In this document: piece by piece, positions 5,824 to 60,535 of the stretch
Layout of the letters: the number at the start of each line of letters is the position of its first letter
How positions within the stretch are numbered: position 1 is the first letter of the stretch
NCBI GenBank assembly: GCA_038040385.1
Contig: JBBPII010000005.1
Span: 288,858-352,857, forward strand
Origin: Candidatus Gilichinskyi gelida
Lineage (GTDB): Bacteria; Acidobacteriota; Thermoanaerobaculia; Gp7-AA8
Length of the DNA: 64,000 nucleotides
Reading direction: 5' to 3'
The notes under the pieces: model-generated
What the model was told of the DNA's origin: nothing
What the model saw: the letters and a program-made list of their open reading frames with translations, nothing else
Databases searched by the model: none
Program-made: the position numbers and the translations under genes

Positions 5824-6435
5824 CCCATGGCCAAGCAGTCCGTCGCTCCTCCCGAAATCGCCCGTGGCACCACGAAACGCGAGCGCATCCTCCGCGCCGC
5901 GATCGACGTCTTCGCCCAGAACGGCTACTTCAACGCCAAGGTCTCCGATGTCGCCAAGGCCGCCGGCGTCGCCGACGGCACGATCTACCTGTACTTCGAC
6001 GGCAAGGAAGACCTGCTCGTCAACATCTTCCGCGACCACGCGCGCAACTATCTGCAGTCGCTGGAGCGCGAGCTGGCGCACGTCCGCCACGCCGAGGACC
6101 GCATCCGCATCGCCATCCGGCACCATCTGGAGACCCTGGGCCGCGACCGCGCGCTGGCCATCGTCGCCCAGGTGGAGCTGCGGCACAGCCTGAAGTTCAT
6201 GAGCCTCCTCTCGCAGCAGGAAGTGGCCGACTACCTGAACATGCTGCGCAAGATCGTCGAGCATGGGCAGTCCGATGGGAGCTTCCGCCGCAACCTCCAC
6301 CCCCAGCTCGTGGCCAAGGCCATCTTCGGCGTGCTCGATGAGATGGTGACGTCGTGGATGCTCTCGGAGAAGGACTACAACCTCGGCGACAGCTCGGAGC
6401 AGGTGTCGGAGCTGCTGTTGACAGGGCTGCTGTAG
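5809..6435 (+). CDS. TetR/AcrR family transcriptional regulator
   Basis: N-terminal HTH RERILRAAIDVFAQNGYFNAKVSDVAKAAGVADGTIYLYF. The alternative start ATG 5827 (MAKQSV...) would leave the palindrome fully upstream. Confidence 0.85.
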   Translation: MSIHSPMAKQSVAPPEIARGTTKRERILRAAIDVFAQNGYFNAKVSDVAKAAGVADGTIYLYFDGKEDLLVNIFRDHARNYLQSLERELAHVRHAEDRIRIAIRHHLETLGRDRALAIVAQVELRHSLKFMSLLSQQEVADYLNMLRKIVEHGQSDGSFRRNLHPQLVAKAIFGVLDEMVTSWMLSEKDYNLGDSSEQVSELLLTGLL

Positions 6436-6504
6436 CTAGCCACGAGGGCGATTCGACAATAGATTGTTCACGTGCACAGCCAGTTGAATCCAAACGGCGG
6501 AGGG

Positions 6505-6915
6505 ATGATGCGACAAAAACGAGCCATCGTGCTGTTGGCGCTAGCGTTAGCTTCCTGCACGTCCGCGCAGGACATGATGGACGCAGCGCGAGCGGCTAAC
6601 CGATCAAAGCTCATTCAACTTCAGCCAGGAATGGACCGCGAAACCGTCCTGCGAACGATGGGAACCACTCCGATGAAGATACGTGACCTCGGCTCTGTCG
6701 TGGCCACGATCAACAATCCGTTCCGGACGGAAATGTATCAGGCAAACGGGCACCGGTTCGAAATCCTGTACTACTACACGGACCTGAAAAGCGGCGATGG
6801 CGGAATCACAGATGACGAACTCACCCCGCTCCTCATCAAAGACGGCGTTCTCGATGGATGGGGATGGTCATACCTCAAAGACGTCAGCGCGAAGTATGAG
6901 ATTCGGATTCGATGA
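6505..6915 (+). CDS. lipoprotein, DUF3192-like
   Basis: Signal peptide plus lipobox (LALASC); C-terminal ...ILYYYTDLKSGDGGITDDELTPLLIKDGVLDGWGW...; SD GGAGGG upstream; lies in a lower-GC segment. Confidence 0.5.
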   Translation: MMRQKRAIVLLALALASCTSAQDMMDAARAANRSKLIQLQPGMDRETVLRTMGTTPMKIRDLGSVVATINNPFRTEMYQANGHRFEILYYYTDLKSGDGGITDDELTPLLIKDGVLDGWGWSYLKDVSAKYEIRIR

Positions 6916-6994
6916 CCGATGAGTCGATGACAACCGCCTCCCACCTGTTACAGCTTCACAATCCGAACTAGGGGAGACATATACTTGACTCATC

Positions 6995-7939
6995 GTGCGG
7001 GAGGCGCTCAGCACGAGCGGGGATTTCTACCACAACTTCTTGCGGATTCTTCATCCGAATACCGACGTGCCGGGGGTAAAGCCTGTGGCTTTTTTGGAGC
7101 TGTACTTCGATGAAAGCGGCCATTCCGCCGATAAGGCATACATTGTCATGGCCGGATACATTGCACCGGCAGAGCGATGGTTGGGTTTCGCGGATGAATG
7201 GAATGCTGCCCTTGTGGTGGCTGGCGTTTGCCGCACGGATGGAACCGCTGGCGAATTTCACATGACCGACTTCGAGGCCAAACGCGGGGCGTTTAGCGGA
7301 TGGACGGAAGAGCCGCGTAGGTCTCTTTTGGGCAACCTTATGGGCATTATTGATAACCATCAGCTGCACGCAACTGGATTCGTCGTTTCAACCGCATGGT
7401 GGAAAACGATTAGCTGGAAGGACGAGCATCCCAATCACAAACCCCTAGAAGATCCCTATCACCACGTGATGCAAAACGCCATTGCTACCGCCTTGACTAT
7501 GACGAATCATCAGGACGTGGCGCCTGACTTGTTTTCACCGGATGGTGTGGCGTGCGTGTTCGCACCGCAAGAAGAATTCGAGCCTAAGGCTGCTCAATAT
7601 ATGGCGGCCATGGCCCACTTCCTCACCGTGTTAGCCGCGCCCACCGTCACGAGTATTACATTTGCCTTGACGAACATGCCGCAACTGCAAGCTGCCGATA
7701 TCGTGGCATTCGAGCTACGCTGGCGACTTACCTGCCCGAATATTGACAGGTGGCCAATGCGTCAGATTCTCAAAAGTGGGCGTGGCAAGTTTGCTGGACT
7801 GCCGACCGGCATTCTTGCGAATGCGAACCTCGGGAGGGTAGAGCCAATCGAATTCCCAACTCAGGTGCTACAGGCTAGCGATTCGTTGGCGAAGAAATTG
7901 ATTCCGAAGCGCCAACGGAAGCGAAAGCAAGGAATCTAA
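6995..7939 (+). CDS. DUF3800-like protein (conserved N-terminal F-D-E-S-G motif)
   Basis: ...LELYFDESGHSADKAYIVMAGYIA... matches the DUF3800 N-terminal DE motif. The true start may be GTG near 7084 (VAFLELYFDESG); lower-GC region; no other recognisable domain. Confidence 0.45.
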   Translation: MREALSTSGDFYHNFLRILHPNTDVPGVKPVAFLELYFDESGHSADKAYIVMAGYIAPAERWLGFADEWNAALVVAGVCRTDGTAGEFHMTDFEAKRGAFSGWTEEPRRSLLGNLMGIIDNHQLHATGFVVSTAWWKTISWKDEHPNHKPLEDPYHHVMQNAIATALTMTNHQDVAPDLFSPDGVACVFAPQEEFEPKAAQYMAAMAHFLTVLAAPTVTSITFALTNMPQLQAADIVAFELRWRLTCPNIDRWPMRQILKSGRGKFAGLPTGILANANLGRVEPIEFPTQVLQASDSLAKKLIPKRQRKRKQGI

Positions 7940-8085
7940 GCAGTTCGTCCCATCAACCGGGCCCGTTGGAGTTCTTGACGTGCGGCGTTCCGAGCCTTCG
8001 TGCGATTGATTCGCCACCAGGTTTCCCCCCGTCGAATGTGCTGCGCCGCGAGATCGCTGATTTCGATCGGAAGCCCATCGGTCAT
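7936..8085 (-). CDS. small ORF, possibly a truncated toxin-like gene
   Basis: 49 aa, MTDGLPIEISDLAAQHIRRGETWW...; 4-bp overlap with the upstream small gene; too short for a full RelE/ParE toxin. Confidence 0.2.
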   Translation of the reverse strand: MTDGLPIEISDLAAQHIRRGETWWRINRTKARNAARQELQRARLMGRTA

Positions 8086-51128: not shown

Positions 51129-54038
51129 ATGCCCTCCCGCACCTCGATTGCTATTTTCATCGCGCTCGCCTTAGGCGCGCTCCCCGCCTTCGCGCAGACG
51201 TTCGTCTTCCACCTGCGCGGCGACCAGGAAGTCCCCCCGGTGCCGAGCGTCGCCACCGGCGGCTGCATGATGGAGCTCAATCAGCCGATGGCGCAGACGA
51301 CCATCACCTGCGTTCACAACGTGGTCGGCGCGACGGTCATGCACATCCACCGCGGCGCGCCCGGCGTCAACGGCCCCATCGTCTTCGACCTCGGCGATCC
51401 CGCCAGCCCGGTCACCGCGACCTGGATCGGGATGACGCCTGCCGACATCGCCGACATGCTGGCCGGCAACTTCTACATCAACATCCACACGGCCGGCCGG
51501 CCGGCCGGCGAGATCCGCGGTCAAATTCTGACGCGCACCGTCGACCTGGTGGCCTTCACCGCGAACGGCGCGCAGGTGGTGCCGCCGAACGCGTCGGCGG
51601 CCACGGCGAACTGCACCGCGGACCTCGACAACCCCGCCACCTCGCTCGCGGTGAACTGCACGCACAATTTCGCCTCGCCGCAGAGCGCGCACATTCACGA
51701 GGCGCCCGCCGGCCAGAACGGGCCGATCGTTTTCACCTTCGCCAGCCCGAATTCGCCGCTGTCGGCGAACGTGCCGACGACGCCGCAGCTCGTCGCCGAC
51801 TTCGCCGCCACCTTCCTCTATCTCGACATCCACGGCGCCGGCGGCACCGAGGCGATACCGGCGGATGAGATCCGCGGCCAGATCGGAACGCCGCCCGCAC
51901 CGCCGAGCACCGGAACGATCGAGATCGTCAAGACGACGCAGCCGGCCGGCGGCACCGGTTTCACCTTTACGGACAATGTTCCCGGCTCGCCGGGAACCTT
52001 CGCGCTCAACGACGGCCAGACGCGCACGTTTTCCGCGGTTCCCGCCGGCACGTACACCGTCAGCGAGAACGACCCGACCGTGACGCCCGGCGGCTACACG
52101 CTCGGCGACCTCTCGTGCACCGACGCCGACAGCACCGGCGACACGGCCGCCCGCACGGCGACGGTCCGCCTCGCCGCGGGCGAGACGGTGCGCTGCACGT
52201 TCCGAAACCTGCGCACCGCGGCCACCGACACGCTGTTCGTCTTTCATCTGTCCGGCGACCAGGAGGCGCCGCCGGTCTCCACCACGGAGCGCGGCGGCTG
52301 CATGGGCCGCTTCAACAGCGGCGCCAGCGAGCTCACGCTCATCTGTACTCATGATGTTGCGTCGCCGACGGTCATGCACATCCATCGCGGCGCTCCCGGA
52401 GTCAACGGCCCGATCGTCTTCGACCTCGGCAGTCCCGTCAGCCCGGTGACCGCCACCTGGAGCGGGATGACGCCGGCGGACGTGGCCGATCTCCTCGCCG
52501 GCAACCTGTACATCAACATCCACACCGCGGGCCGGCCGGCGGGAGCGATTCGCGGCCAGATCCTGCCGCGGACCGTCGACGTCGTAAACTTCACGCTCGA
52601 CAGCAGCCAGGTGGTGCCGCCGGGAACCAGCACCGCAACCGGAAACTGCACCGCCGACCTCGACAACCCCGCGACGGCGCTCGCCGTCCAGTGCACGCAC
52701 AACCTGCCGTCGCCCAACCAGGCGCACGTCCACCAGGCGCCCTTCGGCGCGAATGGGCCGATCGTCTTCACCTTCCCCACGCCCGCCAGCCCGTTCTCGG
52801 CGAACGTGCCGATGACGCCGCGGCTGGTCGCCGATTTCGCCGCGTACTTCCTCTACGTCGACGTCCACGGCGTCGCCGGCTCGGAGAGCACGCCCGCTGA
52901 CGAGATCCGCGGCCAGATCGGCGCGCAGGCAGCCCCACCGGCCACCGGCACGATCCGCATCGTCAAATCGACGGCGCCCGCGGGCGGCAGCGGCTTCGGC
53001 TTCACCGACAACGTTCCCGGCTCGAGCGGCAGCTTCACTCTCAGCGACGGCGGCGTGCGGACCTTCACCAGCGTCGCCGCCGGCACGTACACGATTACGG
53101 AGAACAATCCGGCCGCAAGCGGCTACTCGCCGACGGACGTCAACTGCGACGACGCGGACAGCGCCGGCGACCCGTTCGCGCGTACGGCGTCCGTTCATCT
53201 GCAGGCCGGCGAAACGGTCACCTGCACGTTCCACAATCTGCAGTCGCAGGCCGCATCGTCGCTGTTCGTCTTCCACCTCTCCGGCGACCAGGAAGTGCCG
53301 CCGGTGGCCACGGCGGCGACCGGCGGTTGCTTCATGCAATTCACCGCCACGTTGAGCCAGCTCTCCATGGTGTGCACGCACAACGTCGGCAGCCCGGTGC
53401 AGATGCACATCCACCGCGGCGCCCCCGGCGTCAACGGCCCGATCCTCTTCGACCTCGGCAACCCGAGCAGCCCCGTGGAGGCCGTTTGGACCGGCATGAC
53501 GCCCTCCGACGTCGCCGATCTCATGGCGGGAAACCTGTACATAAACATCCACGCCAGCGGCCGGCCGGCGGGGGAAATCCGAGGACAGATCCTTCCGCGG
53601 ACCATCGACCACTTCAGCTTCGTCCTGACCGGCAGCCAGATGGTGCCGCCGACCGATTCGACGGCCACCGGCAATTGCGCGGCGGACCTGTCGGACGATG
53701 CCGGGTCGCTGTCCATCCAGTGCCGCCTCAGCATCGCGAACCCGACCGCGATCCATCTGCACGACGGACCTCCAGGGGTGAACGGGCCGGTGGTCTTCGA
53801 CTTCCCCCCCAGCAGTTCGTTCGCGGGCGCCGCGCCGCTGACGCCGCGGCTGGTGGCGGATTTCGCCGCCGGCTTCCTCTACCTGGACATTCATTCGGCG
53901 AACGATCCCGACGGCGAGATCCGCGGACAGCTCACCGCTTCGTCGGCGTCCGCGGCGGCCATCCCGATGTTCGACGGATGGATGATGATGCTGCTCGCCG
54001 CGGCGCTGGTAAGTCTCGCGGTGTGGCGGATGCGTTAG
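51129..54038 (+). CDS. secreted 6x CHRD-domain repeat protein with C-terminal TM anchor
   Basis: Signal peptide. Six CHRD-like units (e.g. TFVFHLRGDQEVPPV...MHIHRGAPGVNGPIVFDLG; ...AHIHEAPAGQNGPIVFTF) interleaved with Ig-like GTIEIVKTTQPAGGTGFTFTDN... modules. C-terminal ...IPMFDGWMMMLLAAALVSLAVWRMR. Confidence 0.7.
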   Translation: MPSRTSIAIFIALALGALPAFAQTFVFHLRGDQEVPPVPSVATGGCMMELNQPMAQTTITCVHNVVGATVMHIHRGAPGVNGPIVFDLGDPASPVTATWIGMTPADIADMLAGNFYINIHTAGRPAGEIRGQILTRTVDLVAFTANGAQVVPPNASAATANCTADLDNPATSLAVNCTHNFASPQSAHIHEAPAGQNGPIVFTFASPNSPLSANVPTTPQLVADFAATFLYLDIHGAGGTEAIPADEIRGQIGTPPAPPSTGTIEIVKTTQPAGGTGFTFTDNVPGSPGTFALNDGQTRTFSAVPAGTYTVSENDPTVTPGGYTLGDLSCTDADSTGDTAARTATVRLAAGETVRCTFRNLRTAATDTLFVFHLSGDQEAPPVSTTERGGCMGRFNSGASELTLICTHDVASPTVMHIHRGAPGVNGPIVFDLGSPVSPVTATWSGMTPADVADLLAGNLYINIHTAGRPAGAIRGQILPRTVDVVNFTLDSSQVVPPGTSTATGNCTADLDNPATALAVQCTHNLPSPNQAHVHQAPFGANGPIVFTFPTPASPFSANVPMTPRLVADFAAYFLYVDVHGVAGSESTPADEIRGQIGAQAAPPATGTIRIVKSTAPAGGSGFGFTDNVPGSSGSFTLSDGGVRTFTSVAAGTYTITENNPAASGYSPTDVNCDDADSAGDPFARTASVHLQAGETVTCTFHNLQSQAASSLFVFHLSGDQEVPPVATAATGGCFMQFTATLSQLSMVCTHNVGSPVQMHIHRGAPGVNGPILFDLGNPSSPVEAVWTGMTPSDVADLMAGNLYINIHASGRPAGEIRGQILPRTIDHFSFVLTGSQMVPPTDSTATGNCAADLSDDAGSLSIQCRLSIANPTAIHLHDGPPGVNGPVVFDFPPSSSFAGAAPLTPRLVADFAAGFLYLDIHSANDPDGEIRGQLTASSASAAAIPMFDGWMMMLLAAALVSLAVWRMR
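51195..53990 (+). repeat. three tandem ~1.03-kb coding repeats (units start near 51195, 52230, 53260; the third lacks the Ig-like module)
   Basis: Protein-level super-repeats (2 CHRD + 1 Ig-like) with recognisable DNA-level similarity. Confidence 0.65.
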
Positions 54039-54844
54039 CGCCTGAACGCCCCCGCCCACCACTCCCCCTTCTCGCGCTCCGCCACCATCGGCAACGGACA
54101 GGCCGCGACGACCTCGGCGCGCTTGTCGAGAAGGATTCCGCTCAAGATCAACGTCCCGCCGACGTGCCTCACAACCTCATCGAGCAGCGGGAGGATGACC
54201 TCGGGAATGATGTTCATGGTCACCACGTCGAAGCGTCCGCCGCGCAGCGCTTCGACGCCGCCGATGAACAGCGGCATGCGCGACGGCTCGACGCCGTTGC
54301 GCGCGCGGTTGTCGCGCAGCGCGCCGTAGGCGTCGGTGTCGTTGTCGAAGGCGATGGCCTTCGCCGCGCCGAGGCGGAGCATGGCCAGGGCCAGGATGCC
54401 GCTGCCGGAGCCGACGTCGAGGCCGCGGCCCAGCGCGAGGTCGAGCGTCTCCAGCAACTCGATGCAGAGCGAGGTCGTCTCGTGCGAGCCGGTGCCGAAG
54501 GCCTGCTCCTGCGGGATCACCAGGGCGTGGCGGCGCGTGTCGGGCGGAATGAGCTTGGCGTCGGGAGCGACGACGAACGATTCGCCGATGACGATCGGCT
54601 GTAGTAACTGTTGATATAGCTGAAGCCAGTCCACCGGCGCGCGCTCGGAGGCGCGGATCTCGACGTCGGCGAAGAACGCCGCCGCTTCGTCGCGGTCCTC
54701 CGCCGACTCGAAGTAGGCGGTGATGAGCGTCGCGGCGTCGACGTCATCGGAGGTGCTGCCGGTGGAGCGGGTGAGGAAAAGGCGGGCGATCATCTCCTCT
54801 TCGCGCTTCGGATCGCAGGAGATCTCGAGGAGGAAGTCGTTCAT
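54035..54844 (-). CDS. prmA: ribosomal protein L11 methyltransferase
   Basis: LDVGSGSGILALAML SAM motif and PrmA layout. Confidence 0.8.
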   Translation of the reverse strand: MNDFLLEISCDPKREEEMIARLFLTRSTGSTSDDVDAATLITAYFESAEDRDEAAAFFADVEIRASERAPVDWLQLYQQLLQPIVIGESFVVAPDAKLIPPDTRRHALVIPQEQAFGTGSHETTSLCIELLETLDLALGRGLDVGSGSGILALAMLRLGAAKAIAFDNDTDAYGALRDNRARNGVEPSRMPLFIGGVEALRGGRFDVVTMNIIPEVILPLLDEVVRHVGGTLILSGILLDKRAEVVAACPLPMVAEREKGEWWAGAFRR

Positions 54845-54895: not shown

Positions 54896-55996
54896 TTATT
54901 TCGCTCCCTCGTTGCCGCTCTTTTCCTTTGGTTTGACCGTGGAGCGGACGACGATGATCTTGTTGAGAATGTCGAACCAGAACGGCGCTCCGAGCGTCAC
55001 GGCCGCGGCGGTGATGAGGATGCCGAGAATCTTGGAGAGCCAGTCCAAGCCGGTTGCGGGTCGGCTATGGTTCTTCCACCCGATCGGGAGGCCGAAAGAC
55101 TCCATCTTGTCCAAGCTCCCGGTCAATCGTTTGAGGGTCGCATCGATCGCCTCGTGATCCGCCTTTGTCTTCGCTTCCCCCTTCGCCTCCACCTGCCCCT
55201 TCGCCTCCACCTGCCCCTTCGCCTCCACCTGCCCCTTCGCCTCCGCCGCCTTCGCCTCTGCTGCCGCCTTCGCCTTCGCCTCCGCCGCCGCCTCCTCACG
55301 CAGCTTCTGGGTCACCTCGGTCGTCGCCGCGTTTACGACCGCCGCGCGCAGCGCCTTGTCGGTCGCCAGTTTCTTGGCCACCGCGATACTGTCGACGTTC
55401 AGCGCGCCTGCGGCCGCTAGTCCAACCAAGGCGAGAATCCAGTGCGTCCGCCGCTTGTACCAACCGGAGACGCGGTCCATGCTGGAGTTGAACCACTCCT
55501 CAACGTTCTCCCGCGCCTTCGCGGCATTGTTCGCGGCGGCGGTGATCAGCCGCCCAACCGCCTGATCCACGCCGCCGATGGCGCCCGCGAGCGGGTTAGC
55601 GATCGGCGCGACGGCCGCGGGCGCCGGATCAACCGTGCCCGCAGCCGGTGGCGCGGCCGCGGTGGCACCGGCGAGCGGCACGTTCAGTACGTCCATGAGG
55701 GCCAATGCAAAGTTGCGGGCGGGGATGTAGGACGGCAGCTTGCGCTTGGCCCACATGCCCGCTGTGGTGACGTTCGGAAAGTTGCCGCGGTAAAGGCTGG
55801 CGATGAGTGGGTGGTCATAGACCTGCGCGACGATCGCCGGGTTGTTTATCAGCTCGCCGATTCCCTCCAGCAGATCGCGCCCGCGGTATTGCAACAGCGT
55901 CTCGATGATCTCGATCACCGCCGAGGCGATGAGACTCATCATCAGGTACAAGAAAACCACGCCGATGGCCACGTCGAGCATTTCGAGACCGAACAT
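54896..55996 (-). CDS. uncharacterised membrane protein, paralog A (family with 59525..60535)
   Basis: N-terminal TM MFGLEMLDVAIGVVFLYLMMSLIASAVIE; conserved ...PSYIPARNFALALMD..., ...AKARENVEEWFNSSMDRVSGWYKRR... and C-terminal TM ...LGAPFWFDILNKIIVVRSTVKPKEKSG; contains a GQVEAK tandem repeat. Confidence 0.5.
   Translation of the reverse strand: MFGLEMLDVAIGVVFLYLMMSLIASAVIEIIETLLQYRGRDLLEGIGELINNPAIVAQVYDHPLIASLYRGNFPNVTTAGMWAKRKLPSYIPARNFALALMDVLNVPLAGATAAAPPAAGTVDPAPAAVAPIANPLAGAIGGVDQAVGRLITAAANNAAKARENVEEWFNSSMDRVSGWYKRRTHWILALVGLAAAGALNVDSIAVAKKLATDKALRAAVVNAATTEVTQKLREEAAAEAKAKAAAEAKAAEAKGQVEAKGQVEAKGQVEAKGEAKTKADHEAIDATLKRLTGSLDKMESFGLPIGWKNHSRPATGLDWLSKILGILITAAAVTLGAPFWFDILNKIIVVRSTVKPKEKSGNEGAK
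55175..55290. repeat. 18-bp tandem coding repeat (GQVEAK)x3 within an Ala/Lys-rich low-complexity tract
   Basis: CCCCTTCGCCTCCACCTG repeated on the plus strand (coding on minus). Confidence 0.6.
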
Positions 55997-56642: not shown

Positions 56643-56924
56643 CTATCCCGCGCTCCGTACCGGGACGCGCACGCCAGCAGCAGGGACACCCCGAAGGATG
56701 CCTTGGACAGACAGGTCTTCGTCAATTTCCGGCCAATGAATGCCAAAGCCAGCGCCTGCTATCTGCCACTCGTTACGCTGGGTCGCCGTTGCGTGTAGCA
56801 AGCGTGGATACCAGACGAGTGGCACGCTGACCGTGCGGCCGTCTGCGAGGTCGACCACGAGCGTGTCCTCGGTGACGTGAACGCCTACGATGCGCTCGCC
56901 GGGTTTAGGTTCCGAAGTATTCAT
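56643..56924 (-). CDS. DUF2442 domain protein
   Basis: ...[50 protein letters not shown]... Confidence 0.7.
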
Positions 56925-57180
56925 TCCAAGCCTGCATCAGCTTCAGCTGGTTCTCACTGATCATCGTTTCGATCGTGCGCAACTCACGTGCCGGAAAGCC
57001 AAAGTTGACCACGAGAGCCACGGGTTGGAGCCAGAACTTGGCCGACGACTCGTCTCGATCTACGTGCACATGGGGCGGCTCGCCTGGCTCGTGGCTGTAA
57101 AAGTACACCCGGTAGGGACCGTTGCGCAAAACCGTTGGCACGCGCCGAAAGTGTAGCGCGGCAGGCCGGGAGCGATGCAC
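56905..57180 (-). CDS. DUF4160 domain protein
   Basis: ...YRVYFYSHEPGEPPHVHVDRDESSAKFWLQP...FGFPARELRTIETMISENQ...; likely GTG start near 57138; overlaps DUF2442 by 20 bp. Confidence 0.7.
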   Translation of the reverse strand: MHRSRPAALHFRRVPTVLRNGPYRVYFYSHEPGEPPHVHVDRDESSAKFWLQPVALVVNFGFPARELRTIETMISENQLKLMQAWNEYFGT

Positions 57181-57854: not shown

Positions 57855-59139
57855 TCAAACATTAACATTTACAGATCGGCGCGTGGCCGAATGATGTAGT
57901 TCCATTCACCGTGAAACGAATCAGGGGCGAGGTTGACTGTGGCGATCTCTTTGTCACTCACCTTGCGGCCAACAGGGTACCGACGTCTGTCCAATCGGCA
58001 CGTTACCTTCAGCCCCTTGGCAGTGGTTGTCTTGGCGATTAGACGCACGATGGTTTCGTAGTCGCGCAGGGGCTCGCCACGCCAGTTCGACGAGATGAAT
58101 GAGAACAAGCGATGCTCGACCTTGTTCCATTTGCTTGTTCCTGGAGGGAAGTGGCACACCACGATGGAGAGGCCAGCCCAGTCCGCTAGTCCCTGCAGCC
58201 CGATCTTCCATTGCCGAAGGCGGTAGCCATTGCTGCCGCCGGCGTCCGCGGTAATCAGGAGAGTGTTGGCTTTCGGATAAAGGCGCCGTCCTTCAGCGCG
58301 CCACACCCTCGAATGGATGCTACCGCAAACGCACCGGTGTCATGATCGGTCCCCACGTTCACGAACCCGGTATTGCGACCCAAGTCGTAGATGCCGTATG
58401 GGTACGCTCGCGGCACCGATGGATCGGGGAAGTCGTGAACGTTCACTCTCTGAGGAGTTTTCGTCTTCAGCCATTGCCGACCCTCGTTCTGGTAATTGCC
58501 AAGGATCTCTTTCTTCTTCGTATCGACAGAGATGACTGGTCGCTTCCGAGCGAGGGCCTCGCGGACTTTTTCATTAATGTATTGAAACTGCGCGTCGCGG
58601 TCCGGGTGATCGCTGCCCTCGTCGGTCTTGCGGTTCCCCTGTAGGCTGTAGTCCATCTGTCGCAGCAACTGTGCGACCTTCTCGTGGCTCACCGAGTGGT
58701 CCTGGGCGGCCAGTTCAGCCGAGAGAGCGCGCGTACTCTTGCTTGTCCATCTCAGCGGCGAGTCCGGGTCCCCACGCGTGAGCGGTTCGACCAGCGCTCC
58801 AGTTTGCTCGGTAGGTCGGGATCGAGCGCGACCAGGGACGGCCGTCCCCCACCCCAGCGCCGAACGCGTCCCGGCGGCAGCGGCGGATCTTCCAATTCTT
58901 GCAATCCCTTCGTGATCGTGACTCGAGACAATCCGCAGGCCTTGCTGACGGTCGTCACGCCTCCGTGGCCGAGTTCACGAGCCTCGCTCGCGGCAAACAA
59001 CCGCCGCGCCCGCTCGTCCAGATGAGGCCAAAGGAGAGCCACCTTCTGCTGAAGCGCACGCACGGTCGTCATGCTCAAGGAGCTTAACCTGAAGGTCTCT
59101 GAATGTAAACGTTATTACTTGACGACGCCTTACCGCAGC
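57855..59139 (-). mobile_element. IS630-family insertion sequence with fragmented transposase
   Basis: Imperfect terminal inverted repeats GTCAAACATTAACATTTACAG (57855..) and CTGAATGTAAACGTTATTACTTGAC (..59139). Transposase in 3 frames: HTH part 58752..59078, middle 58255..58692, DDE part 57869..58306. Confidence 0.65.
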
Positions 59140-59524: not shown

Positions 59525-60535
59525 TCACTGGCTGGGCGGCGGCGCCTGCGGCTCTTTCGGCCCCTCCGTCCCGCTCTTCTCCCGCGGCTTCACTGTCGAG
59601 CGGACCACCATGAACTTGTTCAGGAGGTCGAACCAGAACGGCGCGCCGAGGCAGACGGCGAAGGCGGTGAGCAGCCAGCCGACCAGGGTCAGGCCGCCTG
59701 CGGCGCTGAGGTTTTGCTTCCAGCAGCTCTGCCAGCAGGGATCAAGGATCTTCACCGTTTGCCGGTCGCATTTCCGGCACGACGGCCAGCCGAGCGGGAG
59801 TCCCAGCCGCCCGAGCTCTGTACTGACCGAGTCGAACTCCTTCGTGATGTCGCCGGCGGGCTGCTTGGCGTAATTCGTGGCGATGGCCACGATGGCCTCG
59901 CGCTTCGCCTTGTTGGTCATCAGCTCGCGGAGGATGCGCACGGTGTCGATGTTCAGCCCGACGGCGACGATCAATCCGATGACGAACAGCGCGCGCTGCG
60001 CGCGCCGCTTGTACCCGCCGGAGACCCTGTCCATCGCCGTGTCGAACCAGAACTCGATGTTCTCGCGCGCCTTCTGTGCATCGCCGGCGGCGGCGTTGAC
60101 CAGCGTGAGCACCGCGTGGCGCGCCTGATCGGCGAGCGGATCGCCGGTCATCCCGCCCACCAGCGCCGCGGTGCTGACGCCCGCCCCCGTCCCCGGTCCC
60201 GCCGCACCCGCCACGCCCTTGTGCTGCGAGGGGTCGGGGCTGATCAGCAGATCCATGATGGCCAGCGCGAAGCTGCGCGACGGGATGTACGACGGCAGGT
60301 CGCGCATGCCCGGCTTGTAAGTGCCCTTGAACAGACCGTTGATCAGCGGATGGTTGTAAAACCGGGCCACCAGGTTCGGGTCGCGGAGCAGCTCGCCGAT
60401 GCCGCGCTCCAGGTCCGACGATCGCCGCTTGAGCACCGCCTCGGCGCTTTCGACGATCGCCGAGCAGAGGAGGCTGACCAGGAGATAGACGAATGCGATT
60501 CCGATCGCCACGTCGAGCATATCCAGTCCGAACAT
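59525..60535 (-). CDS. uncharacterised membrane protein, paralog B
   Basis: Collinear with paralog A (MFGLDMLDVAIGIAFVYLLVSLLCSAIVE..., ...PSYIPSRSFALAIMD..., ...QKARENIEFWFDTAMDRVSGGYKRR..., ...LGAPFWFDLLNKFMVVRSTVKPREKSG...); has 4 extra Cys (CRKCD...CWQSCW). Confidence 0.5.
   Translation of the reverse strand: MFGLDMLDVAIGIAFVYLLVSLLCSAIVESAEAVLKRRSSDLERGIGELLRDPNLVARFYNHPLINGLFKGTYKPGMRDLPSYIPSRSFALAIMDLLISPDPSQHKGVAGAAGPGTGAGVSTAALVGGMTGDPLADQARHAVLTLVNAAAGDAQKARENIEFWFDTAMDRVSGGYKRRAQRALFVIGLIVAVGLNIDTVRILRELMTNKAKREAIVAIATNYAKQPAGDITKEFDSVSTELGRLGLPLGWPSCRKCDRQTVKILDPCWQSCWKQNLSAAGGLTLVGWLLTAFAVCLGAPFWFDLLNKFMVVRSTVKPREKSGTEGPKEPQAPPPSQ

Follow-up and report, generated by a model that had tools for sequence, protein, structure and literature searches.

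The CHRD domain (PF07452) is known from chordin, whose four CHRD domains form serially packed, extracellular, eight-stranded Greek-key barrels resembling superoxide dismutase (SOD) in the crystal structures (9RD6, 9QVV, 9IGM); these contain no metal and bind glycosaminoglycans at a basic site (PMC13382577). In bacteria, CHRD proteins are known as components of the exosporium or spore surface (PMC5335551), and those of Trichodesmium are regulated by iron and dust (PMC5776111); no function was assigned in either case. In the CnaB stalk domains, a Lys–Asn bond formed with a catalytic Glu joins the first and the last strand (PMC4014117), and a survey of 2025 lists SpaA_4, DUF7601, SpaA_2 and SdrD_B as predicted CnaB-like Lys/Glu/Asn isopeptide families, with disulfides in 79% of the isopeptide domains of Acidobacteriota (PMC12617251). 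An IPTL-CTERM tail is carried by an immunolocalised surface-layer (S-layer) protein of Methylomirabilis (PMC8671808). Here, we describe a gene combining CHRD domains, CnaB-type spacers and an IPTL-type tail, located at 51129..54038 on the plus strand of a 64,000-nucleotide stretch of contig JBBPII010000005.1 of Candidatus Gilichinskyi gelida (the window). On balance, its product is probably a Sec-exported structural or binding protein displayed in the envelope or on the cell surface, with three CHRD pairs on isopeptide-locked spacers and an IPTL-type tail.

The list of open reading frames (ORFs) gives an ATG-initiated frame of 969 amino acids with exactly these coordinates, the stop codon included. 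The GC content is 0.90 at the third and 0.55 at the second codon position, so the plus strand is the coding one and the opposing 963-residue ORF is its shadow; the GC content of the window is 65–70%. The same protein sequence, again flanked by the aminotransferase and PrmA genes, was recovered from the independent Logan short-read assembly SRR28961269. The earlier note, made from the letters of this DNA, had proposed a secreted protein, and a predicted signal peptide ending in AFA|Q was indeed read from the sequence. The orthologue N-termini are likewise hydrophobic and end directly before a conserved QTFVF.

The Pfam search of the 969-residue protein assigned the CHRD model to six stretches (E 6.3e-140, 459.6 bits against a cutoff of 24.1), as that note had anticipated, and prealbumin-like SpaA_4/DUF7601/SpaA_2 models to two more; the NCBIfam scan of the whole protein returned noise only. 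Pfam and the self-BLAST agree on the layout that had been described, namely two CHRD domains and one further module, three times over, with the last module missing.

The CHRD signature was tested as HxH, YxNxH and GEIRGQ, and its HxH, Y..H and IRGQ core was present in all six domains. Within the family, the His-x-His pair, the single His of YxN/DxH and the Arg of GEIRGQ are 93–100% conserved; in a set of 783 CHRD domains drawn from 149 diverse clusters, 90% keep the His triad, 99% the Tyr and 100% the Arg. One Cys pair per CHRD domain is present in 99–100% of the family vs. about 10% of CHRD domains generally. All six domains are acidic (pI 4.2–5.8, with 1–5 Lys plus Arg each), and the mature protein has a pI of 4.8. 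The profile of the six domains matches the chordin chains 9qvv/9igm/9rd6, which are the only solved relatives detectable by sequence, and CHRD6 is the stretch that best matches 9qvv/9igm. The domains share with chordin the family and the barrel, the serial packing and the extracellular setting; unlike those of chordin, they are acidic, keep the His set, have a disulfide within each domain and are separated into pairs by CnaB-like spacers.

The AlphaFold2 (AF2) model of CHRD1 has a predicted local distance difference test score (pLDDT) of 95.2 and consists of an eight-stranded barrel with one helix. In it, the His-x-His pair closes strand 4 (residues 46–53), the single His closes strand 7 (93–99) and the Arg opens strand 8 (107–110), while the loops after strands 4 and 7 are 8 and 7 residues long. 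Its best PDB neighbours found by Foldseek are Cu,Zn-SODs. The proposal that the conserved His-x-His/His/Arg set forms a metal or small-ligand site is a reasonable hypothesis rather than a finding.

The two spacers had been described as Ig-like, which proved too vague. Their Pfam scores are well above the cutoffs (SpaA_4, PF24514, 64.2 bits vs. 27.3; DUF7601 45.2 vs. 27; SpaA_2 45 vs. 25). Lys268/Glu313/Asn360 are invariant in all 112 sequences of the family alignment and Lys613/Glu658/Asn703 in all 111 sequences; the pairs Cys330/Cys356 and Cys673/Cys699 are likewise invariant. Because of this invariant triad and Cys pair, both spacers are predicted to be isopeptide-locked stalk domains of the CnaB type. 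In the AF2 model of spacer 1 (pLDDT 93.8), the Lys lies in the first strand, the Glu ends a central strand and the Asn lies in the last strand, a placement that fits the CnaB arrangement since these strand positions match the published description (PMC4014117). The top PDB matches of this model in Foldseek were stalk domains of Gram-positive pilins and adhesins, many of them with known cross-links. The best was a Mobiluncus adhesin cross-linked by disulfide, isopeptide and ester bonds (E 1.5e-5, TM-score 0.72), and others included Spy0125, Spy0128, GBS52 and FbaB CnaB2. The match of the spacer profile to the Streptococcus pyogenes pilin Spy0128 was marginal (E 0.007), with the Glu and the Asn aligned to VVTE and TFTN; a separate, insignificant fragment aligned the Lys with the TVKK strand. 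In Spy0128, the corresponding residues are reported to be Glu258, Asn303 and Lys179 (Kang et al. 2007).

The spacers share the fold, the Lys/Glu/Asn triad, the disulfide and the spacer role with the stalk domains of Spy0128, SpaA/SpaD and FbaB CnaB2. Unlike these Gram-positive stalks, they belong to a diderm acidobacterial host and to a protein with an IPTL-type tail instead of an LPXTG/sortase signal, and their bond is a predicted one; moreover, just two of them alternate with CHRD pairs, in contrast to long homotypic CnaB stalks. As the families concerned are already listed in the survey (PMC12617251), the isopeptide feature is expected for them and is not new.

It should be noted that an acidic loop follows directly after the first Cys of both spacers, at 52116..52142 (amino acids 330–338) and 53145..53171 (673–681). 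Its family consensus is C-D-D-A-D-S-T-G-N/D, here CTDADSTGD and CDDADSAGD, and it resembles the Ca-binding loops of some CnaB pilin domains, e.g., SpaD D3.

The C-terminus, preceded by an Ala/Ser linker, has the layout motif–transmembrane (TM) helix–basic end on a protein with a predicted signal peptide. It had been likened to a sorting signal on this layout, which holds, and most orthologue tails support the comparison. Their consensus is [IVA]PT[LAV][SG]EW, a hydrophobic helix and (W)WR[ML]R, and at E<=0.01 the curated models TIGR04174 IPTL_CTERM (best 8.8e-10) and PF18203 were matched by 89 and 88 of the 114 tails, respectively. NF033207, named 'midcut-by-XrtH', was matched by 86 of the 114 at model positions of about 27–61 of 175, so this XrtH-associated family carries an internal IPTL-like signal; the matches would fit exosortase H as the sorting enzyme of IPTL-type tails. 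By NCBI naming, exosortase H (XrtH) is the cognate enzyme of IPTL-CTERM. The invariant Pro and the Trp and Arg that are at least 90% conserved in the tail alignment are all kept in IPMFDGW...WRMR. IPMFDGW is shared by the closest relative, P0001, and similar variants occur in P0002, P0004 and P0007. By orthology, the tail is therefore best read as a putative diverged IPTL-CTERM signal, while by the curated test it is a non-member. The IPTL-CTERM protein mela_00855 of Methylomirabilis lanthanidiphila likewise has an N-terminal signal peptide and a motif/TM/basic tail, and its surface destination has been shown; its passenger domains are unrelated to those described here (PMC8671808).

The features of the gene are collected in Table 1.

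Table 1. Parts of the CHRD gene in the 64,000-nucleotide window.
Feature	Amino acids and residues	Position	Strand	Basis
Whole gene, CHRD/CnaB-like/IPTL-type protein	969 amino acids	51129..54038	+	ORF list, GC3 0.90, Pfam, identical protein in independent assembly
Predicted Sec-type signal peptide	1–22; MPSRTSIAIFIALALGALPAFA, then QTFVF	51129..51194	+	Read from sequence; orthologue N-termini
CHRD1, type A	23–134; Cys46-Cys61, His63, His72/His74, His120, Arg130	51195..51530	+	Pfam best stretch 25–133, residue conservation, AF2, Foldseek
CHRD2, type B	138–253; Cys162-Cys177, His179, His188/His190, His235	51540..51887	+	Pfam, conservation
Spacer 1, predicted CnaB-like (SpaA_4/DUF7601)	259–363; Lys268/Glu313/Asn360, Cys330-Cys356	51903..52217	+	Pfam, conservation, AF2, Foldseek, Spy0128 profile match (marginal)
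CHRD3, type A	368–479	52230..52565	+	Pfam, conservation; 71% identity with CHRD1
CHRD4, type B	483–598	52575..52922	+	Pfam, conservation; 71% identity with CHRD2
Spacer 2, predicted CnaB-like (SpaA_4/SpaA_2)	604–705; Lys613/Glu658/Asn703, Cys673-Cys699	52938..53243	+	Pfam best SpaA_4 stretch 609–703, conservation
CHRD5, type A	711–822	53259..53594	+	Pfam, conservation
CHRD6, type B, most diverged, without the CxH histidine	826–936	53604..53936	+	Pfam, conservation
Sorting-type tail	945–969; IPMFDGW (945–951), TM helix MMMLLAAALVSLAVW (952–966), RMR (967–969)	53961..54035	+	Sequence, sub-threshold TIGR04174, orthologue tails

The protein search returned 439 homologues. The best 120 of them are all 62–87% identical to the query, and all but one are 900–1005 amino acids long. 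More than 110 full-length orthologues of about 960–985 amino acids and 64–87% identity, already annotated in the databases, have exactly the same architecture, CCSCCSCC-tail (C, CHRD; S, spacer). Those with names are called 'CHRD domain-containing protein [Thermoanaerobaculia bacterium]' or 'hypothetical protein [Acidobacteria bacterium]', and P0106 is annotated as an 'IPTL-CTERM sorting domain-containing protein'. The scan of the GTDB species genomes placed orthologues in metagenome-assembled genomes (MAGs) of Thermoanaerobaculia and Acidobacteria gp7. The annotated Thermoanaerobaculia MAG proteins P0011, P0022 and P0106 have the same length (about 960–985 amino acids), architecture and invariant Cys, His and Lys/Glu/Asn positions at 64–70% identity; the difference lies in the tail motif, which is diverged from IPTLSEW in the window copy and in P0001, P0002, P0004 and P0007. 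The gene is thus an ordinary member of a well-populated, already annotated and functionally uncharacterised family; it adds little that is new.

The CHRD domain had been called rare in bacteria, and this did not hold. The CHRD profile found 15,465 cluster representatives at 50% identity among 1.84 billion, including 5,742 at E<=1e-10; the domain is uncommon in bacteria, not rare. Arrays of 2–13 CHRD domains were common among the top matches, many with bacterial sorting tails. Among 44 diverse CHRD proteins, CHRD was accompanied by type IX secretion system tails (10), DUF11/CLIPPER (9), SusE, Calx-beta, DUF7507, DUF7619, Ig-like domains and EF-hands. All of these are surface, stalk or sorting modules, none of them catalytic or copper-specific, and a surface context is supported because CHRD arrays elsewhere are fused to such modules only.

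A course of events consistent with these results can be proposed. The signal peptide would carry the protein over the inner membrane, where the C-terminal motif, TM helix and Arg tail would retain it. Judging by orthology, the tail is probably the substrate of an exosortase-family enzyme whose gene lies elsewhere in the genome; its cleavage or transfer would release the protein to the surface of the cell or to the matrix. The mature part would be a rod with three CHRD-A/CHRD-B pairs in which every domain forms a Greek-key barrel of the SOD type and contains one disulfide; the search and modelling tools support this identity and fold. The pairs would be set apart by the two spacers, with predicted autocatalytic bonds Lys268-Asn360 (Glu313) and Lys613-Asn703 (Glu658) and a disulfide each. 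With the triad invariant and correctly placed, we infer that such cross-links make the stalk resistant to proteases and force. The six barrels would be the functional heads, each with its His-x-His/His/Arg set; given the acidity of all CHRD domains, this set would bind a metal ion or small ligand and not a polyanion. Compared with a fibrillar adhesin, which combines repeated stalk domains, a terminal adhesive domain and a surface anchor, the protein has two stalk-type domains and an anchor-type tail and has no recognised adhesive domain.

Several results weigh against this reading. The isolated tail scores 9.1 bits in TIGR04174, below the cutoff of 20.5, and has no match to PF18203; it could instead be an uncleaved membrane anchor. 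A check for exosortase-like genes was negative both for the 64-kb window and for related loci totalling about 115 kb; it covered ten window proteins, most of them picked for their predicted TM segments, one polytopic candidate of the related locus L006 and the ORFs in gene-call gaps. Neither was a second IPTL-like tail found in the window or the related loci, nor a sortase gene in the window. The link to XrtH comes from the name of an NCBIfam model and from NCBI naming, and a literature search on XrtH/exosortase H returned nothing relevant. The gene context yields no functional clue because synteny is not conserved. The likeness of the CHRD structure to SOD is weak since the Foldseek matches have E values of 6.5e-3 and above and TM-scores of 0.52–0.63. 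When the family CHRD profile and then the diverse CHRD profile were aligned with SOD1 by hhalign, no significant alignment was obtained (probability 0.1–1%). Finally, the family has no experimentally studied member, and bacterial CHRD domains are not known to bind any ligand.

The similarity to Cu,Zn-SOD leads to the alternative that the CHRD barrels hold SOD-derived three-His metal centres, so that the protein would present a surface array of six sites for superoxide or redox defence or for metal capture. We regard this as possible but considerably less likely than the binding or structural role proposed above. The neighbours of the CHRD1 model include a SOD1 variant that lacks loops IV and VII (TMq 0.58, TMt 0.61), and the strand order is the same. 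The His-x-His pair closing strand 4, the single His closing strand 7 and the Arg opening strand 8 would correspond in relative position to His46/His48, His120 and Arg143 of SOD1. The best hhalign register, which is insignificant (probability 1%), sets His72/His74 over SOD1 His46/His48. The retention of the His triad and the Arg in diverse CHRD domains suggests a functional site rather than a scaffold, and all the domains are acidic.

Against this, the 969-residue protein has no Sod_Cu match in Pfam even at E<=1. The SOD loops with the bridging His and the Zn ligands, as well as the electrostatic loop, are absent: the loops after strands 4 and 7 are so short, compared with the long loops IV and VII, that CHRD1 has no room for a Zn site or a bridging His. 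The CHRD domains of chordin have no bound metal (PMC13382577), none of the 44 diverse proteins has a copper-related domain joined to CHRD, and a literature search for a link between CHRD and copper returned nothing relevant. As the hhalign alignments are insignificant, sequence alone cannot equate the CHRD histidines with the Cu ligands of SOD. At most, three His and one Arg may be retained in the SOD positions in CHRD1.

More speculative still is the idea, which we would not favour at present, that the bacterial CHRD domain derives from, or is related to, the Cu,Zn-SOD barrel, reduced in size but with a three-His plus Arg metal site retained. Six such sites would then stand on a covalently cross-linked stalk on the outside of soil Acidobacteriota, as an extracellular array that is active on superoxide or in redox reactions or that captures metal. 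If it were true, it would provide the first biochemical function for a 20-year-old orphan domain and would explain why chordin, having lost the histidines, uses the fold purely as a scaffold.

With respect to metals, one orthologue, P0116, has a gene for a copper-type P-type ATPase (YHS, HMBD, E1-E2_ATPase) directly upstream and co-oriented, at L003 7619..9913(+). This is a lone case amid non-conserved synteny and, for the metal hypothesis, no more than anecdotal.

A second alternative, that the protein is a lattice-forming, S-layer- or exosporium-like envelope component whose CHRD pairs self-assemble rather than bind a ligand, also appears rather unlikely. It would agree with the IPTL-CTERM tail of the Methylomirabilis S-layer protein, with ExsM and the CHRD protein of B. 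laterosporus, which are structural parts of spore outer layers, and with the position of the gene alone among housekeeping genes. For a surface protein, the sequence is also conserved unusually evenly and strongly (mean orthologue identity of 66–75% per domain). However, isopeptide stalk spacers are typical of monomeric fibrillar adhesins, not of two-dimensional lattices (PMC12617251).

Chordin, as the sole sequence-detectable relative with a solved structure, suggests that the CHRD domains could hold sulfated or acidic matrix glycans by chordin-like binding of polyanionic polysaccharides. We consider this improbable and rejected it on charge: the chordin site uses the basic residues R193/R239/R530/H566, whereas every CHRD domain described here is acidic and poor in Lys and Arg. 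In addition, both the alignment and the chordin paper indicate that the His set of the bacterial domains is largely not conserved in chordin.

In the self-BLAST of the DNA, nucleotides 72–1744 of the gene matched 1107–2772 with 72.8% identity, at an offset of 1035 nucleotides (345 amino acids), and 2136–2772 matched 72–709 with 68.7% identity. From these offsets, the units begin at 51200, 52235 and 53264 of the window, within 5 nucleotides of the starts that had been read by eye (near 51195, 52230 and 53260). Tandem Repeats Finder reported no repeat in the gene; it is blind to a period of about 1035 nucleotides because its longest period is 500. The CHRD domains of type A (1, 3 and 5) are 67–71% identical among themselves and those of type B (2, 4 and 6) 51–71%, compared with 40–46% between the types; the spacers are 65% identical to each other.

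The earlier note had also taken the locus for a recombination hot spot with a variable copy number, a view that these data contradict. The longest exact repeat within the gene is 20 nucleotides, which makes it very unlikely that assembly collapsed or expanded the repeat. In 112 aligned proteins, the nearest neighbour of a CHRD domain in another protein occupied the same domain position in 667 of the 669 cases, and the mean identity per domain is higher between orthologues than between paralogues within a protein (50–66%). The length is 950–999 amino acids in 108 of the 120 homologues listed. Gene conversion, of which there is no sign, and copy-number instability are therefore unlikely here, and the three-unit arrangement is an ancient, fixed triplication rather than a variable repeat. 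Kilobase tandem repeats can in principle collapse in assembly and recombine, and there are related clusters of one, two or three units. Even so, the ideas of an assembly artefact and of a hypervariable contingency locus were rejected as extremely improbable, since the units are only 69–73% identical and the independent assembly, the positional orthology and the shortness of the longest exact match all speak against it.

Across longer evolutionary distances, the module is reused, the number of units differing only from one distinct, distantly related cluster to another, in the forms CC-tail, CCSCC-tail and CCSCCSCC-tail. As separate clusters reuse the modules with one or two units, a CHRD pair with an IPTL tail is the minimal form of the architecture. 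The one- or two-unit clusters (P0123, P0129, P0219, P0186 and others) measure 278–678 amino acids for CC-tail and 633 and 1152 for CCSCC-tail.

The value of the gene lies in being a clean and highly conserved example in which three predictions are directly testable. Namely, diderm Acidobacteriota would use self-locking isopeptide stalk domains in a surface protein of the exosortase (IPTL-CTERM) type; the conserved His/Arg site of the bacterial CHRD domain would have a ligand whose identification would give the domain a function; and IPTL-type tails would tolerate substantial drift of the motif, as in IPMFDGW. Current views would not be overturned by any of the three.

The neighbours of the gene in the window are housekeeping genes (PrxQ, aminotransferase, PrmA, pyrophosphatase). 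The CHRD gene stands alone among them, and at the loci of distant orthologues the neighbours are entirely different each time. The gene converges with the prmA-like gene (54035..54844, minus strand), and their stop codons overlap by 4 nucleotides (54035..54038). There is no intergenic terminator between the two, and no terminator-like site was found near the end of the CHRD gene.

Further downstream, two paralogous genes for membrane proteins of 336–366 amino acids with no NCBIfam match lie at 54896..55996 and 59525..60535 on the minus strand. Both products begin with MFGL[ED]MLDVAIG and end with VVRSTVKP[KR]EKSG.EG, and the copy at 54896..55996 contains an (EAKGQV)n repeat. Between them, at 56.6–59.5 kb, lies a stretch with a lower GC content of about 61%. 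It contains two small overlapping ORFs, 56643..56924 and 56905..57180 (minus strand), and, judged by eye, a putative transposase split into the ORFs 57869..58306 and 58255..58692; the stretch looks like an insertion or a remnant of an insertion sequence between duplicated genes. Near the start of the window, at about 6000..8000, the GC content is 57% vs. about 67% elsewhere, and the sole ORFs there, 6463..6915 and 6989..7939 (plus strand), have a weak contrast in codon-position GC; this part may be foreign or non-coding DNA.

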